In this document: positions 1 through 39,705 of the stretch, one piece after another
Layout: each line of letters starts with the position of its first letter
Numbering within the stretch: position 1 is the first letter of the stretch
Sequence record: OR594182
Length of the DNA stretch: 39,734 nucleotides
Strand: one strand, 5' to 3'
Origin: Escherichia phage vB_EcoM_SHAK7854
The notes under the pieces: model-generated
Database searches by the model: none
Told to the model about the DNA's origin: nothing
What the model saw: the letters and a program-made list of their open reading frames with translations, nothing else
Program-made: the position numbers and the translations under genes

Positions 1-1731
1 ATGACTGCACGTATGAAGTCAGACTTCGTGTTCTTCCTGTTCGTCCTGTGGAAAGCTCTGTCGCTCCCAGTCCCGACTCGCTGTCAGATTGACATGGCGA
101 AGAAACTATCGGCTGGGGACAACAGGCGCTTCATCCTACAGGCGTTCCGTGGTATAGGGAAGTCCTTCATTACGTGTGCCTTCGTTGTCTGGAAGCTATG
201 GAACAACCCAGACTTGAAGTTCATGATTGTGTCGGCCTCAAAGGAGCGAGCCGATGCTAACTCCATCTTCATCAAGCGAATCATCGACCTCATGCCTCAG
301 CTTCAGGAACTCAAACCTAAGCAGGGACAGCGAGATGCGGTTATTAGCTTCGACGTGGGACCTGCCAAGCCAGACCACTCACCTTCGGTTAAGTCCGTTG
401 GTATCACTGGTCAGTTGACTGGTAGTCGTGCTGACATCCTGATTGCCGATGACGTGGAGGTTCCGAACAACTCAGCGACTCAGGCTGCACGAGACCGTCT
501 ATCAGAGCTTGTGAAAGAGTTCGACGCTATCCTGAAGCCGGGAGGTACGATCATCTATCTGGGTACTCCTCAGAACGAGATGACCCTGTACCGTGAGCTG
601 GAAGGTCGTGGGTACACCACTACTATCTGGCCCGCTCGTTATCCACGCGACAGGAAGGACTGGCAGTCTTACGGCGACCGTCTGGCTCCTATGCTTCAGG
701 CAGAGCTGGAAGAGGACCCTGAGTCCTTCTACTGGCGTCCGACTGATGAAGTACGCTTCGATGATACGGACCTGAAGGAACGTGAGCTGTCCTACGGTAA
801 AGCTGGCTTCGCTCTACAGTTCATGCTTAACCCGAACCTGAGTGATGCCGAGAAGTACCCTCTTAAGCTCCGTGACCTTATCGTAGCCGACTTGGACCCA
901 GCGTCCAGCCCAATGGTCTACCAATGGTTGCCGAACCCTCAGAACAAGCGTGAGGACGTTCCTAACGTTGGACTCATGGGTGACTCGTACCACACGTATC
1001 AGACTGTAGGTTCTGCCTTCAGCTCATACACCCAGAAGATTCTGGTCATTGACCCTAGTGGTCGTGGTAAGGATGAAACTGGATATGCGGTACTGTACCA
1101 GCTCAACGGCTACATCTTCGCTATGGAAGTTGGTGGCATGCGTGGTGGTTATGAAGACTCTACGCTGGAAGCCTTGGCTAAGATTGGTCGTAAGTGGAGG
1201 GTAAACGAATACGTCATTGAGGGTAACTTCGGTGATGGTATGTACCTTGAGCTATTCAAGCCTGTATCGGCCCGTATCCATCCTGCGGCTGTAACTGAAG
1301 TGAAGAGTAAGGGTCAGAAAGAACTACGCATCTGTGACGTTCTGGAGCCTATCATGGGGTCTCACAGACTTATCGTTAACGCTGCTGCTATCGTCCAAGA
1401 CTACCAGACAGCCTCTGACAAGGATGGTGTTCGTAACCCTATCTACTCTCTATTCTATCAGATGACACGTATCTCTCGTGAGCGTGGAGCCTTGGCACAC
1501 GATGACCGACTTGATGCGCTGGCTATCGGTGTACAGTTCTTCGTTGAGTCGATGGCTAAGGATGCCAACAAAGGCGAACGTGAAGTCACTGAGGAATGGC
1601 TGGAGGAACAGATGGAGAACCCACGGAAAGGCTTCGAGTCCATCCACACTGAGTTCTGGGACAATGGGGTCCGGGTAACTCACGATACGGACGACGAGCT
1701 TGGACTAGGGTCATACGTTACGTTCCACTAG
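1..1731 (+). CDS. DNA packaging terminase large subunit (T7 gp19 family); 5-prime partial at window start, N-terminus supplied by 39702..39734 if the molecule is circular
   Basis: 576-aa ORF, collinear with T7 gp19 from about residue 12 ([55 protein letters not shown]). Confidence 0.93.
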
Positions 1732-2940: not shown

Positions 2941-3043
2941 CAAAGCTATAGACTTAAGGTCTAATACATGTTAGTCAAAGACTATATCCTCTTAGTCACT
3001 ATGGGCCGACGATAGCTTAATCAATATTATTTAAGATTACCTA

Positions 3044-3072
3044 TTGACTACAGGTCCAGACTATGGCTTAAT
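3044..3072 (+). promoter_or_regulatory. candidate host sigma70 early promoter (T7 A1-like position)
   Basis: TTGACT, 17-nt spacer, CTTAAT; surrounding sequence resembles the T7 A1 region. Confidence 0.4.
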
Positions 3073-3184
3073 AGCTTCCGTCAACACGACACGGCAACAA
3101 CCGGATAGTGAAGACGCCGGGTCATCCCGGTTAAGTAGACAGCCTGATAAGTCATACGAACAACAGGCAGATGACAGAAAGTAG

Positions 3185-3214
3185 TTGACAAGATGTACCG
3201 ACTTAAAGTAGTAT
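3185..3214 (+). promoter_or_regulatory. candidate host sigma70 early promoter (T7 A2/A3-like)
   Basis: TTGACA, 18-nt spacer, TAGTAT, followed by GTACCACAT as at T7 A3. Confidence 0.5.
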
Positions 3215-3341
3215 GTACCACATCAACACGAAACAACGGTGACGACCAACACTGAAACGGTCTACCTGAAGTCCTCTGACTGAAGGGAATGCTCTTTAAC
3301 AATCTGGATAAACTCTTAATGTGCGCCGACAGTGATTAACT

Positions 3342-23838: not shown

Positions 23839-23861
23839 ACTAAACTATCACTATAGGGAGA
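23839..23861 (+). promoter_or_regulatory. phage RNAP promoter (phi10-like, strongest consensus match)
   Basis: ACTAAACTATCACTATAGGGAGA; +1..+6 GGGAGA as in T7 class III. Confidence 0.8.
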
Positions 23862-25013: not shown

Positions 25014-25276
25014 CGACCTTTAAGGCCCTCTCTACAGAGGGTCCTACCTTAGAGACGTATAGTTCTACGGTGGGGACCAGCTTGAAGGTTGACTTCCCGG
25101 AGCTTTCAGATGTGACCGATTGGTCGCTTCTTGAGGTGACTACGCCTGATGGTGTTAGCTACTCCCGTAGAACCAACAGTCTCTACTTCAAGGCCACCTC
25201 TGGCGTGGAAGGTCTGGTGATTGTTGGGTATGACGGTGCGCCTGTGCGTTCCTTCAACGTATCTTTCACAAACTAA
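23964..25276 (+). CDS. minor capsid protein 10B-like, predicted product of a -1 ribosomal frameshift at GGTTTTC (24986..24992)
   Basis: same heptanucleotide context as the T7 10A/10B shift site; -1 frame open from 24938 to the stop at 25274..25276. Confidence 0.45.
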
Positions 25277-25281
25277 TTGAA

Positions 25282-25320
25282 ACCCCTTGGGTGCCTTCGG
25301 GTGCTTGAGGGGTTTTTTTG
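25282..25320 (+). terminator. Tphi-like terminator after the capsid gene
   Basis: AACCCCTTGGGTGCCTTCGGGTGCTTGAGGGGTTTTTTTG resembles T7 Tphi. Confidence 0.8.
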
Positions 25321-25340: not shown

Positions 25341-25430
25341 ATGTTCCTTATTTACACATGGTTAGCACTATTCGTCTTATTCTGGGCGTACCTGCTGCCC
25401 AGCTCACCGTCTAGCCCCTATGACCGCTAA
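25341..25430 (+). CDS. hypothetical small hydrophobic peptide (29 aa) between Tphi and gene 11
   Basis: GAGGAGGG RBS 6 nt upstream; MFLIYTWLALFVLFWAYLLPSSPSSPYDR. Confidence 0.3.
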   Translation: MFLIYTWLALFVLFWAYLLPSSPSSPYDR

Positions 25431-25441
25431 GGAGTAAACCT

Positions 25442-26008
25442 ATGTCTCAATACATTCCACTTAATGCTAACGATGACTTAGATGCCATCAACGATATGTT
25501 AGCTGCTATTGGTGAACCAGCAGTCCTACAGCTTGACGAAGGTAACGCTGACGTCTCGAACGCTCAACGTATCCTGCATCGTGTTAATCGTCAGGTCCAA
25601 GCTAAAGGCTGGAACTTTAACATCAACGAAGCTGCTGTCCTGACGCCTGATGTCCAAGACAACAGGATTCGATTCCTGCCGTCTTACCTTCGGGTCATGA
25701 CTGCTGGGGCCACCAGCTACTACAGCAACATGGGTGGATACCTATACGACCTGTCCACTCAGTCAACCACTTTCACCGACCCTATAACGGTAGAGCTTGT
25801 TGAGATGAAACCGTTCTCGGAGATGCCTGTGGTATTCAGGGACTACATCGTTACCAAGGCCAGCCGTGAGTTCAACGCTAAGTTCTTCGGTAGCCAAGAG
25901 TCTGAACTGTACCTTCGTGAGCAGGAATCAGAACTCTATCAGCAGGTCATGGAATACGAGATGGACACTGGTCGCTACAACATGATGTCCGACATCGGGA
26001 GGGACTAA
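25442..26008 (+). CDS. tail tubular protein A (T7 gp11 family)
   Basis: IGEPAV, RILHRVNRQVQAKGWNFNI, GGYLYDLSTQS, YIVTKASREFNAKFFG, MEYEMDTGRYNM. Confidence 0.92.
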   Translation: MSQYIPLNANDDLDAINDMLAAIGEPAVLQLDEGNADVSNAQRILHRVNRQVQAKGWNFNINEAAVLTPDVQDNRIRFLPSYLRVMTAGATSYYSNMGGYLYDLSTQSTTFTDPITVELVEMKPFSEMPVVFRDYIVTKASREFNAKFFGSQESELYLREQESELYQQVMEYEMDTGRYNMMSDIGRD

Positions 26009-26235
26009 TGGCTAGTCACAACCTGAAGATTCACCGCCAGCACTTTGGTCCGGTACAACTAGGTCTAAAGACAGCAGAGCTGAGACTTAACGACCGGGAC
26101 TTTAAGGTTGGCGACTGGCTTATCCTGAATGAGTGGGACAACGGGTATACTGGACAACAGGTAGCACGTAAGGTTGTCCACATTGCTGACGTTGGTGACA
26201 TCGCTGAGGGATACGTCCTAATGAGTATGATTTAA
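26008..26235 (+). CDS. small ASCH/PUA-like domain protein (75 aa) inserted between gp11 and gp12
   Basis: GLKTAELR fits the ASCH signature GxKxxExR; TAATG coupling to gp11; GGGAGGG RBS. Confidence 0.55.
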   Translation: MASHNLKIHRQHFGPVQLGLKTAELRLNDRDFKVGDWLILNEWDNGYTGQQVARKVVHIADVGDIAEGYVLMSMI

Positions 26236-26244
26236 GGAGGGCCT

Positions 26245-28602
26245 ATGCCACTAATTACTCAATCAATCAAGAACCTTAAAGGTGGCATTAGCCAGCAGCC
26301 AGACATCCTGAGGTTCTCGGACCAAGGCGAGGAACAGGTAAACTGCTGGTCATCAGAGAGTGATGGCCTACAGAAGCGTCCACCTACAGTCTTCAAGAGA
26401 CGTCTTAACATCGACGTTGGGAGCAACCCTAAGTTCCACCTGATTAACCGTGACGAGCATGAGCAGTATTACATCGTGTTCAACGGGTCAAACATTCAGG
26501 TAGTTGACTTGAGTGGTAATCAATACTCAGTTTCCGGTGCGGTAGATTACGTTAAGTCGTCCAACCCGCGAGATGACATCCGTGTCGTTACTGTTGCAGA
26601 CTATACGTTCGTCGTTAACCGTAAGGTTGTCGTTAAAGGTGGAAGCGATAAGTCACACTCTGGTTATAATCGTAAAGCACGCGCTTTAATTAACCTGCGC
26701 GGTGGACAGTATGGTCGCACCCTTAAGGTAGGAATCAACGGTGGAGTTAAGGTCTCGCATAAGCTGCCAGCAGGTAATGATGCCGAGAATGACCCACCTA
26801 AGGTGGACGCTCAAGCCATTGGTGCAGCTCTGAGAGACCTTCTTGTTGCTGCCTATCCTACCTTCACGTTCGACCTTGGGTCTGGCTTCCTGCTAATCAC
26901 AGCTCCTTCAGGGACCGACATTAACTCAGTGGAGACTGAGGATGGATACGCTAACCAGCTAATCAGCCCAGTCCTCGACACGGTGCAAACAATCTCTAAG
27001 TTGCCTCTTGCGGCTCCAAATGGGTACATCATTAAGATTCAAGGTGAGACCAACAGTAGCGCCGATGAATATTACGTGATGTATGACTCCAACACTAAGA
27101 CGTGGAAGGAGACAGTAGAGCCGGGAGTGGTCACTGGGTTCGATAACACCACAATGCCACATGCTCTGGTGAGACAATCTGACGGCTCCTTTGAGTTCGA
27201 GACTCTGGACTGGTCCAAGCGTGGTGCTGGTAATGATGACACAAACCCTATGCCTAGCTTCGTGGATGCCACGATTAACGATGTGTTCTTCTACAGGAAC
27301 AGGCTGGGGTTCTTGTCAGGTGAGAACGTAATCATGAGCCGTTCAGCCAGCTACTTTGCGTTCTTCCCTAAGAGTGTGGCGACACTGAGTGATGATGACC
27401 CTATTGATGTAGCTGTAAGTCACCCTAGAATCTCAATACTTAAGTATGCCGTTCCGTTTAGCGAGCAGCTACTACTTTGGTCTGATGAGGTTCAGTTTGT
27501 GATGACAAGCTCTGGGGTCCTTACCTCGAAGTCTATCCAGCTTGATGTAGGCTCAGAGTTTGCCTTAGGTGACAATGCCAGACCGTTCGCTGTAGGACGC
27601 TCAGTCTTCTTCTCAGCTCCTCGTGGGTCATTCACCAGCATTAAGAGATACTTCGCTGTAGCTGATGTGTCTGATGTGAAGGATGCCGATGATACAACTG
27701 GTCACGTACTGTCCTACATCCCTAACGGGGTGTTTGATATTCAAGGTACAGGGACTGAGAACTACATCTGCGTCAACTCTACAGGTGCATACAACCGTAT
27801 CTACATCTACAAGTTCTTGTTTAAGGATGGCGTACAGCTTCAAGCCTCTTGGTCACACTGGGAGTTCCCTAAAGCTGATAAGATTCTGGCATCTGCTTCC
27901 ATTGGCTCTACCATGTTCATTGTTCGTCAGCACCAAGGCGGCGTGGACCTTGAGCACCTTAAGTTCATCAAGGAGGCAACTGACTTTCCGTCAGAGCCGT
28001 ATAGACTCCACGTTGACTCCAAGGTGTCTATGGTCATCCCAATTGGCTCGTTTAATGCTGACACATATAAGACTACGGTTGACATTGGTGCTGCTTATGG
28101 TGGTAATGCCCCTTCTCCCGGTCGGTACTATCTGATTGACAGTCAGGGTGCTTATTTGGACCTTGGGGACTTGACCAGTATCTCTACTGTGATTACCCTC
28201 AACGGCGATTGGTCAGGACGTACAGTGTTCATCGGGAGGCCCTATCTGATGTCCTACAAGTTCTCACGGTTCCTGATTAAGATTGAAGATGATAGTGGCA
28301 CCCAGTCTGAAGACACTGGTCGTCTACAGCTTCGTCGGGCTTGGGTCAACTACAAGGACACTGGCGCTCTGAGACTCATTGTCAGAAACGGTGAGCGAGA
28401 GTTCGTTAACACCTTTAATGGGTACACCCTTGGTCAGCAGACCATAGGGACTACTAACATTGGTGAAGGGCAGTATCGCTTCGCTATGAATGGTAACGCA
28501 TTGACCACGAGTCTAACCTTAGAGTCCGACTATCCTACCCCAGTGTCAATCGTTGGGTGTGGCTGGGAGGCGTCATACGCTAAGAAAGCTCGTTCCGTTT
28601 AA
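26245..28602 (+). CDS. tail tubular protein B (T7 gp12 family)
   Basis: SQSIKNLKGGISQQPDILR, HLINRDEHEQYY, VTVADYTFVVNR, NDVFFYRNRLGFLSGEN, DDDPIDVAVS, LQLRRAWVNY, GCGWE. Confidence 0.95.
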   Translation: MPLITQSIKNLKGGISQQPDILRFSDQGEEQVNCWSSESDGLQKRPPTVFKRRLNIDVGSNPKFHLINRDEHEQYYIVFNGSNIQVVDLSGNQYSVSGAVDYVKSSNPRDDIRVVTVADYTFVVNRKVVVKGGSDKSHSGYNRKARALINLRGGQYGRTLKVGINGGVKVSHKLPAGNDAENDPPKVDAQAIGAALRDLLVAAYPTFTFDLGSGFLLITAPSGTDINSVETEDGYANQLISPVLDTVQTISKLPLAAPNGYIIKIQGETNSSADEYYVMYDSNTKTWKETVEPGVVTGFDNTTMPHALVRQSDGSFEFETLDWSKRGAGNDDTNPMPSFVDATINDVFFYRNRLGFLSGENVIMSRSASYFAFFPKSVATLSDDDPIDVAVSHPRISILKYAVPFSEQLLLWSDEVQFVMTSSGVLTSKSIQLDVGSEFALGDNARPFAVGRSVFFSAPRGSFTSIKRYFAVADVSDVKDADDTTGHVLSYIPNGVFDIQGTGTENYICVNSTGAYNRIYIYKFLFKDGVQLQASWSHWEFPKADKILASASIGSTMFIVRQHQGGVDLEHLKFIKEATDFPSEPYRLHVDSKVSMVIPIGSFNADTYKTTVDIGAAYGGNAPSPGRYYLIDSQGAYLDLGDLTSISTVITLNGDWSGRTVFIGRPYLMSYKFSRFLIKIEDDSGTQSEDTGRLQLRRAWVNYKDTGALRLIVRNGEREFVNTFNGYTLGQQTIGTTNIGEGQYRFAMNGNALTTSLTLESDYPTPVSIVGCGWEASYAKKARSV

Positions 28603-28611
28603 CTTATTGAA

Positions 28612-28656
28612 GGGCCTATAGATTTACCTTAACTATCACTATAGGGACTATAGGCC
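28612..28656 (+). other. 10-bp perfect inverted repeat (GGGCCTATAG / CTATAGGCCC) enclosing the promoter before gene 13
   Basis: arms at 28612..28621 and 28647..28656. Confidence 0.5.
28627..28649 (+). promoter_or_regulatory. phage RNAP promoter (phi13-like)
   Basis: CCTTAACTATCACTATAGGGACT. Confidence 0.7.
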
Positions 28657-39255: not shown

Positions 39256-39705
39256 ATGCTCGAATTTTTAAAGAGAGCGGCTCCGTGGTTACTTGCAGCA
39301 GTGATGTTTGCTGGTGGCTACCACACCGCTAACAATAAGTGGGAGGCTAAGGTAAATGAAGAATACACCTCGAATCTTAAGGCATCGGAAGATACAAGGC
39401 TTGCTGTCCAAGCTGAAGTCAACAAAGTGTCCAAACGGTTTCAGGACGAAATGTCCTCGCTGGAAGGCAGCACTGATAGGATTATTGCTGATCTTCAGTC
39501 TGACAATAAGCGGTTGCGCATCCGAGTCAAACCAACGAGTGGAACCACGCAAAGTGACGGTCGATGCTTCATTGATGGTTACGCCGAACTTGACGAACGA
39601 GATGCTAAACGTCTTATCGCCATCGGAGTGAAAGGAGACAAGTGGATTAAGGCCCTTCAAGACACTGTGAGAGCCTTACAGCAAGAGAAGGAGGTGACGC
39701 ATTGA
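39256..39705 (+). CDS. Rz-like inner-membrane spanin (T7 gp18.5 family)
   Basis: MLEFL, LEGSTDRIIADLQSDNKRLRIRVK, ELDERDAKRL, WIKALQDTVRALQ matches T7 gp18.5. Confidence 0.88.
   Translation: MLEFLKRAAPWLLAAVMFAGGYHTANNKWEAKVNEEYTSNLKASEDTRLAVQAEVNKVSKRFQDEMSSLEGSTDRIIADLQSDNKRLRIRVKPTSGTTQSDGRCFIDGYAELDERDAKRLIAIGVKGDKWIKALQDTVRALQQEKEVTH
39356..39631 (+). CDS. Rz1-like outer-membrane lipoprotein spanin embedded in gp18.5 (+1 frame)
   Basis: PRWKAALIGLLLIFSLTISGCASES lipobox with Cys, then VDASLMVTPNLTNEMLNV. Confidence 0.7.
   Translation: MKNTPRILRHRKIQGLLSKLKSTKCPNGFRTKCPRWKAALIGLLLIFSLTISGCASESNQRVEPRKVTVDASLMVTPNLTNEMLNVLSPSE

Follow-up and report, generated by a model that had tools for sequence, protein, structure and literature searches.

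Among the closest described systems for the gene studied here are the ASCH proteins that act on N4-acetylcytidine (ac4C). All 19 ASCH proteins assayed in one 2026 preprint, from both subgroups, reportedly removed ac4C from tRNA, and the Lys and Glu of the motif were essential for this removal in TthASCH, EOLA1 and TRIP4 (10.64898/2026.02.27.708502); no phage, Enterococcus or DUF3850 protein, nor PDB 3IUW, was found among the 19. YqfB also hydrolyses N4-acetylcytidine, and proteins of the YqfB type are acidic, act on nucleosides and bind no nucleic acid in vitro (PMC9599836). For the DUF3850 family, the crystal structure of a homologue has been available since 2009. The sole solved relative of the present protein by sequence is 3IUW, an 83-aa 'activating signal cointegrator' of Enterococcus faecalis from structural genomics. 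A 2025 PNAS study of the ParB-CTPase fold counts DUF3850 among the fusion partners of this fold that are enriched in phages, and describes its role as unknown (PMC12704722). In the literature naming DUF3850 no functional study was found, and none was found on the Kayfunavirus RNA-binding protein.

The DNA analysed here (the window, 39,734 nucleotides of Escherichia phage vB_EcoM_SHAK7854, OR594182) comes from a Kayfunavirus (K1F-like, Studiervirinae, T7 family). The region of interest shares 99.8% identity with Escherichia phage vB_EcoP-101120B1-2, and about 200 Kayfunavirus genomes match it at 92-97%. The window opens with the large terminase (1..1731, phrog_38) rather than a terminal repeat and has gene 18.5 at its end (39256..39705); in linear Kayfunavirus records such as CR44b, the terminase directly follows gene 18.5, close to the right end. 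The window thus seems to give the genome in circularly permuted form.

Gene 11.5 (11.05 in CR44b) occupies 26008..26235 on the plus strand and encodes a DUF3850, or mini-ASCH, protein of 75 residues and 8.5 kDa (MASHNLKIHRQHFGPVQLGLKTAELRLNDRDFKVGDWLILNEWDNGYTGQQVARKVVHIADVGDIAEGYVLMSMI). The gene and its locus are already annotated publicly in well over a hundred genomes, as 'RNA-binding protein', 'DUF3850 domain-containing protein' or gene 11.05. Upstream lies gene 11 (tail tubular protein A, the gatekeeper; 25442..26008, plus strand, 188 aa), which matches the tail protein family phrog_446 (E 1e-67), and downstream gene 12 (tail tubular protein B, the nozzle; 26245..28602, plus strand, 785 aa), which matches phrog_457 (E 2e-284). 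A first-pass annotation had named these two flanks and had described a 75-aa ORF coupled to gp11 through TAATG, and both statements were borne out. In TAATG (26006..26010), the gp11 stop TAA (26006..26008) and the gene 11.5 ATG (26008..26010) have two bases in common. A strong Shine-Dalgarno (SD) sequence GGGAGGG (25997..26003, plus strand) ends 4 nt upstream of the ATG and is made from synonymous codons at the end of gp11, GGG-AGG-GAC (Gly-Arg-Asp). Gene 12 has its own SD, AAGGAGGG (26234..26241, plus strand), which overlaps the stop codon of gene 11.5. Two antisense ORFs, 26031..26201 (56 aa) and 26065..26181 (38 aa), were considered and found unsupported, and selection tracks the plus frame. 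A search of both strands of the whole window against Rfam gave no RNA family match, which leaves the locus without a competing interpretation as an RNA.

How is the gene transcribed? A Tphi-like intrinsic terminator with a 17-bp stem and a T-run (25279..25316, plus strand) follows gene 10, and phage-promoter cores (CACTATAGG) occur in this stretch only at 23849, before gene 10, and at 28637, before gene 13. With a terminator upstream and no phage promoter before 28637, genes 11, 11.5 and 12 are reached by transcription that passes through the terminator. Promoters and terminator are arranged likewise around genes 10-12 of T7. A scan for sigma-70 promoters and terminators around gene 11.5 gave counts at the level of shuffled sequence, with the Tphi-like terminator as the sole convincing site.

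The spacer between genes 10 and 11 holds further small ORFs. One of 68 aa (25070..25276, plus strand) sits between gene 10A and the terminator, matches phrog_7473 (E 6e-35) and has counterparts in Dev2 ('gp10.1') and in Kc166A. Its frame is -1 with respect to gene 10A and is open from 24938 across the 10A stop (25013), and the ORF could be a 10B-type frameshift extension and not a separate gene. The spacer of K1F, Bas105 and Hafnia phage yong1 is much shorter (about 195 bp) and is without this ORF. Immediately 3' of the terminator there is also a strongly hydrophobic ORF of 29 codons (25341..25430, plus strand; MFLIYTWLALFVLFWAYLLPSSPSSPYDR) whose SD (GAGGAGGG) is nearly perfect. It is without a match in PHROG, and the corresponding spacers of K1F, Bas105 and yong1 yielded no ORF of 18 codons or more.

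Gene 11.5 is not present in every Kayfunavirus. The earlier claim that T7 has no gene between 11 and 12 is correct, the two being separated there by a 23-nt gap alone. In K1F, the type species of the genus, gene 11 overlaps gene 12 directly via TAATG (...GGGAGGGACTAATGCCGCTT...) and gene 11.5 is absent, yet the gp11 and gp12 of K1F are 98% identical in amino acids to those of the window. The gene is thus accessory, and tail building is independent of it. Among the 60 records nearest to the K1F junction, 26 are cassette-free (401 bp) and 33 carry a cassette (638 bp = 401 + 237), which in the window spans 26008..26244 (plus strand; 237 bp) and consists of gene 11.5 and a 9-nt spacer, with boundaries made ambiguous by the shared ATG. 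The first-pass description of an accessory insertion in the structural module therefore holds, as K1F and about 25 close relatives join gene 11 to gene 12. The remaining record, Hafnia phage vB_HpaA_yong1 (MK610268), has gene 11.5 followed by an HNH endonuclease gene (146 aa, 1040..1480) and then gene 12, which suggests that mobile genes have inserted repeatedly at the 11/12 junction in the genus. Shigella phage ESh23 was considered as a third type of junction and dropped, its record being 'UNVERIFIED' and its annotation unusable.

The cassette-free Kayfunaviruses include K1F, Dev2, SH3 and SH4, whereas PE3-1, EcoDS1, LM33_P1, ST31, vB_EcoP_F, Bas105, CR44b, Kc166A and others have the gene at the same locus with the same TAATG coupling. 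Copies of at least 80% identity occur in about 155 records, out of about 212 Kayfunavirus-like records, and 48 records carry a protein at least 99% identical. The protein is 96-100% identical in many Kayfunaviruses and is orthologous even at 67%, as in Kosakonia phage Kc166A, which shows the same layout with identities of 92% for gp11, 67% for gp11.5 and 68% for gp12. The cassette is therefore old in the genus. Its arrival at the 11/12 junction would date to the early Kayfunavirus lineage, with a later deletion in the K1F clade. The codons at the end of gp11 bear on this history. The Gly-Arg-Asp end is written GGG-AGG-GAC, which forms an SD, in the cassette phages and in K1F; it is written GGT-CGA-GAC, which forms none, in the Cronobacter phage Dev2 (NC_023558, 1895..1921; window 25994..26010), where the SD of gene 12 lies in an 11-nt spacer. 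GGG-AGG-GAC in gp11 creates an SD only where there is an overlapping downstream ATG. The comparison is a clear example of selection among synonymous codons to supply a following gene with its ribosome-binding site. Since K1F keeps the SD codons, its junction looks like a secondary, precise deletion, one between the two SD-ATG microhomologies (GGAGGGACTAATG / GGAGGGCCTATG).

To which family does the protein belong? It matches Pfam PF12961 (DUF3850) with 70.1 bits against a cut-off of 22.9 (E=1.9e-19), residues 4-73 aligning to positions 2-76 of the 77 in the model. The match to PF04266 (ASCH) reaches 26.2 bits against a cut-off of 21.2 and covers model positions 2-61 of 103 alone; the protein ends at residue 75 without the C-terminal elements of a complete ASCH domain and can be called a truncated 'mini-ASCH'. 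It matches PHROG 986 ('RNA-binding protein') with E=2.8e-35, a label inherited from the superfamily, and it has no match in NCBIfam. The match to 3IUW has an E of 1e-10 by sequence and 4e-19 by profile. An AlphaFold2 model built with 21 homologues (pLDDT 84) places a helix at residues 10-17 and strands at 3-9, 23-26, 37-43, 47-61 and 69-74. The predicted fold is a PUA-like barrel of five strands and a single helix, the fold of 3IUW. The best BFVD matches are phage DUF3850/ASCH proteins. In the model the octapeptide GLKTAELR (residues 19-26; 26062..26085, plus strand; G19-L-K21-T-A-E24-L-R26, 'GKER' type) falls on strand 2 after the beta1-alpha1 unit, as in ASCH domains (Iyer, Burroughs & Aravind 2006). 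It is directly followed by the DUF3850-specific N28-D29-R30 (26089..26097, plus strand), the stretch with the lowest model confidence.

The first-pass annotation had proposed that this octapeptide fits the ASCH signature GxKxxExR and precedes a beta-rich segment; it does, and four of the predicted strands lie there (23-26, 37-43, 47-61, 69-74). It had also said that the assignment would fall if no profile matched and an unrelated fold were predicted, and both outcomes were contradicted by the two Pfam matches and the predicted barrel. With 3IUW the protein has in common a full-length HMM match, the signature KTxExRxNDRxFxxGD (3IUW reads KNDRNF) and the size of a single domain; it is unusual relative to 3IUW and DUF3850 only in its genomic site, between tail-tube genes and not in an early or replication module. 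We are nearly certain of the family, the fold and the accessory status of gene 11.5.

A word-indexed protein search gave only 31 close relatives, so an exhaustive profile search was needed. Over 1.84 billion cluster representatives (clusters defined at 50% identity), this search found 16,089 relatives with E<=1e-3 and 5,337 with E<=1e-10. In 155 diverse representatives of the family, 14 positions are at least 95% conserved (H4, K7, G19, K21, E24, R26, N28, D29, R30, G35, D36, L40, E42 and G49), and the window protein is identical at 14/14. K21, E24 and R26 are each at least 98% conserved (K21 and E24 in 152/155 each), and N28, D29 and R30 are found in 151, 155 and 153 representatives, respectively. 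The motif is less steady in CR44b (NC_023576, 22053..22277), whose 11.05 protein is 44% identical to that of the window (gp11 81%, gp12 75%); it has lost N-D-R and K7 and carries E24D. Constraint on the motif is therefore not uniform within the genus, and the substitutions would indicate relaxed or changed selection on gene 11.05 in the CR44b lineage. Two IMG/VR Kayfunavirus contigs differ at otherwise conserved positions, one with R30L (gene at 3001..3228) and the other with D31G (589..816); these may be natural loss-of-function variants or sequencing errors.

Then what does the protein do? K21 and E24 provide the Lys/Glu dyad of the octapeptide that characterizes GKER erasers. Compared with YqfB (9KYF), TthASCH (2DP9), EOLA1 and the ASCH domain of TRIP4, the protein has Lys21 and Arg26 at the same positions and is likewise acidic, small and monomer-sized; its Glu24 is as in the GKER subgroup, whereas YqfB has Thr24. 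An hhalign comparison with YqfB pairs K21/E24/R26 with K21/T24/R26, though it is weak (probability 21%, 38 columns). YqfB-type proteins have Lys21, Thr24 and Glu74 with Arg26, whereas the gene 11.5 protein has Glu at 24 and no segment equivalent to that of Glu74, being about 30 residues shorter than YqfB and missing the C-terminal third with the Glu74 region. By its residues, then, it is no member of the YqfB type. It also has the extra invariant N-D-R, H4, D36 and E42 relative to YqfB and other ASCH ac4C enzymes. With YTH, EVE, SRA and McrB-N, the PUA-superfamily readers of modified bases, and with ZmASCH (an ssRNA nuclease), domains that are usually within larger proteins, there is no relation at the sequence level, and the pocket is different. 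With a pI of 6.4 and a net charge of -1.1 at pH 7 the protein is mildly acidic, and its composition shows no sign of a basic surface, so that a general ability to bind RNA is no obvious trait of it. Binding of RNA or modified nucleotides, which the first-pass annotation gave for ASCH/PUA-like domains, is a trait of the superfamily and would carry over to DUF3850 by analogy alone.

Taken together, the best explanation in our view is that gene 11.5 encodes a free-standing minimal protein of the ASCH superfamily, of the DUF3850 family. It would be a dispensable 'moron-like' accessory gene and not part of the tail, expressed late from the gene 10-12 read-through transcript, with its own SD inside the end of gene 11 and translational coupling to gp11. 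The protein, we infer, acts in the cytoplasm of the infected cell to some benefit of the phage. The conserved residues H4, K7, K21, E24, R26, N28-D29-R30, D36, E42 and H58 may line one cleft, in which a nucleobase would sit, whether free or flipped from a nucleic acid. A nucleobase-binding cleft is probable. The likeliest chemistry would be hydrolysis by the Lys/Glu dyad of an N4-acyl group, for example that of N4-acetylcytidine, on host tRNA or nucleosides. We rate the overall account, a cytoplasmic, late-expressed mini-ASCH that binds and perhaps deacylates a modified nucleobase, as slightly better than even; an ac4C-type deacylase specifically, drawn by analogy with the assayed ASCH enzymes, is a tentative suggestion and on balance unlikely.

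On a different reading the protein has no catalytic role and reads or senses a modified DNA base (e.g. m6A or another mark) or a nucleotide ligand; its barrel would dock on DNA or bind the nucleotide and then mask, recruit or signal, in DNA transactions or counter-restriction and not on tRNA. This comes from the company that DUF3850 keeps in other genomes. Within two genes on each side in about 50 non-redundant viral contigs, the neighbours are mainly helicases, primases, the P2 GPA nickase and NinB/NinG, and also HNH endonucleases, Holliday-junction resolvases, DNA methyltransferases (Dam/N6_N4), Mom and transcription regulators; no structural genes were among them. The usual place of DUF3850 is the early/replication part of phage genomes. 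The placement in the tail operon is peculiar to Kayfunavirus and says more about tolerated insertion sites than about function. Many members are longer: DUF551 is the partner in 12/104, others are fused to a dATP/dGTP pyrophosphohydrolase, LexA_DNA_bind or MarR and Crp-type HTH domains, and an IMG/VR contig (2533..3234) encodes a 233-aa protein with a DnaA C-terminal HTH (PF08299, E 1e-10) and a C-terminal DUF3850. The HTH, LexA and ParB-CTPase fusions and the replication-module neighbours point to a DNA or nucleotide ligand as much as to tRNA, and the DNA-linked fusions leave a role with modified DNA or a nucleotide ligand about as alive as the best explanation above.

The methyltransferases and Mom among the neighbours, and the phage-enriched partnership with the ParB-CTPase fold (PMC12704722), would suit such a reader. 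Moreover, ASCH, EVE, YTH and SRA are established or predicted sensors of modified bases (PMC4738411, PMC7641849, PMC12191111), and a 5hmC DNA glycosylase has been reported in a preprint with an ASCH-like fold. However, small early genes adjoin replication genes by default, which makes this context weak, and the net charge of -1 with no basic surface evident does not favour docking on DNA. The strict set of Lys, Glu, Arg, Asn, Asp, Arg and His resembles an active site more than a reader pocket. In addition, expression of the Kayfunavirus gene comes late, once the DNA has entered, by which time restriction would have acted already. We regard a reader role as unlikely.

The protein might also be a counter-defence 'sponge' or decoy that sequesters a nucleotide-derived immune signal or blocks a host defence sensor. 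It is small, its family is phage-enriched and widespread (the 16,089 clusters above), and the gene is patchy among near-identical phages; the authors of PMC12704722 speculate on anti-defence roles for phage ParB-fold fusions, those with DUF3850 included. But it resembles no known sponge, and PADLOC gave nothing significant, with PDC-M07B alone matching a partial stretch at E 0.007 and 14 bits. Late expression is ill-suited to blocking early abortive-infection signalling, and full-text literature searches gave no experimental hint. A sponge is thus improbable.

Could the ORF be simply decaying or selfish filler, a spacer or a hitch-hiker with homing elements at the junction? It was lost without obvious cost in the K1F clade, an HNH endonuclease adjoins it in yong1, and the CR44b copy is without part of the signature. 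Against this, dN/dS over 15 Kayfunavirus copies is 0.12 (dN 0.026, dS 0.216), with dS saturating in the deepest pair, and the reading frame is unbroken in 15/15; for the flanks dN/dS is 0.025 (gp11) and 0.043 (the first 300 codons of gp12). The window protein keeps all invariant residues of the family, the SD is maintained via rare gp11 codons, and gene 12 with its own SD needs no spacer. Gene 11.5 is confirmed as a real, selected gene, far beyond chance, and the filler reading is hardly credible.

As to the virion, the CR44b record marks genes 7.3, 8, 9, 10A, 11, 12, 14-16, 17 and 17.01 as matched by virion mass spectrometry and gives no such flag to gene 11.05, a weak negative for an 8-kDa protein. 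A virion proteomics paper on the K1F-like Citrobacter phages SH3 and SH4 was consulted and is uninformative on gene 11.5, these phages being cassette-free. The gene 11.5 protein is very probably non-virion. A part as tail-assembly chaperone or as a minor component of the virion, to which its seat in the tail operon and its translational coupling to gp11 might point, is largely refuted and very improbable, since gene 11.5 is missing from T7 and from the K1F-type phages with nearly the same gp11 and gp12 and so lacks the constancy of a T7-group structural protein, the CR44b flags fall on its neighbours and not on 11.05, and its homologues elsewhere lie in non-structural modules.

The family, the gene and its position are already known, and the finding is correct but not new; for this window alone gene 11.5 matters little. 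The wider interest lies in DUF3850, which abounds in phages (more than 16,000 clusters) and is a recurrent fusion partner of ParB-CTPase and HTH domains. The window phage and the K1F-type phages form a natural presence/absence pair in which the flanking tail genes are 98% identical, a clean system for the function of the domain. A bolder reading, which we consider doubtful, is that DUF3850 is a large phage-spread class of minimal ASCH enzymes that erase or capture a modified cytosine-type base. The target would be, for example, ac4C at the wobble position of the host elongator tRNA-Met, or an acylated or otherwise modified nucleotide. If this is true, host translation or nucleotide pools would be retuned, or a modification-dependent defence blunted. 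At 8.5 kDa, the protein would in that case rank as the smallest enzyme known to remove modifications from nucleic acids and as the first ac4C eraser of a virus, and the Kayfunaviruses would have wired such an enzyme into their late tail operon.
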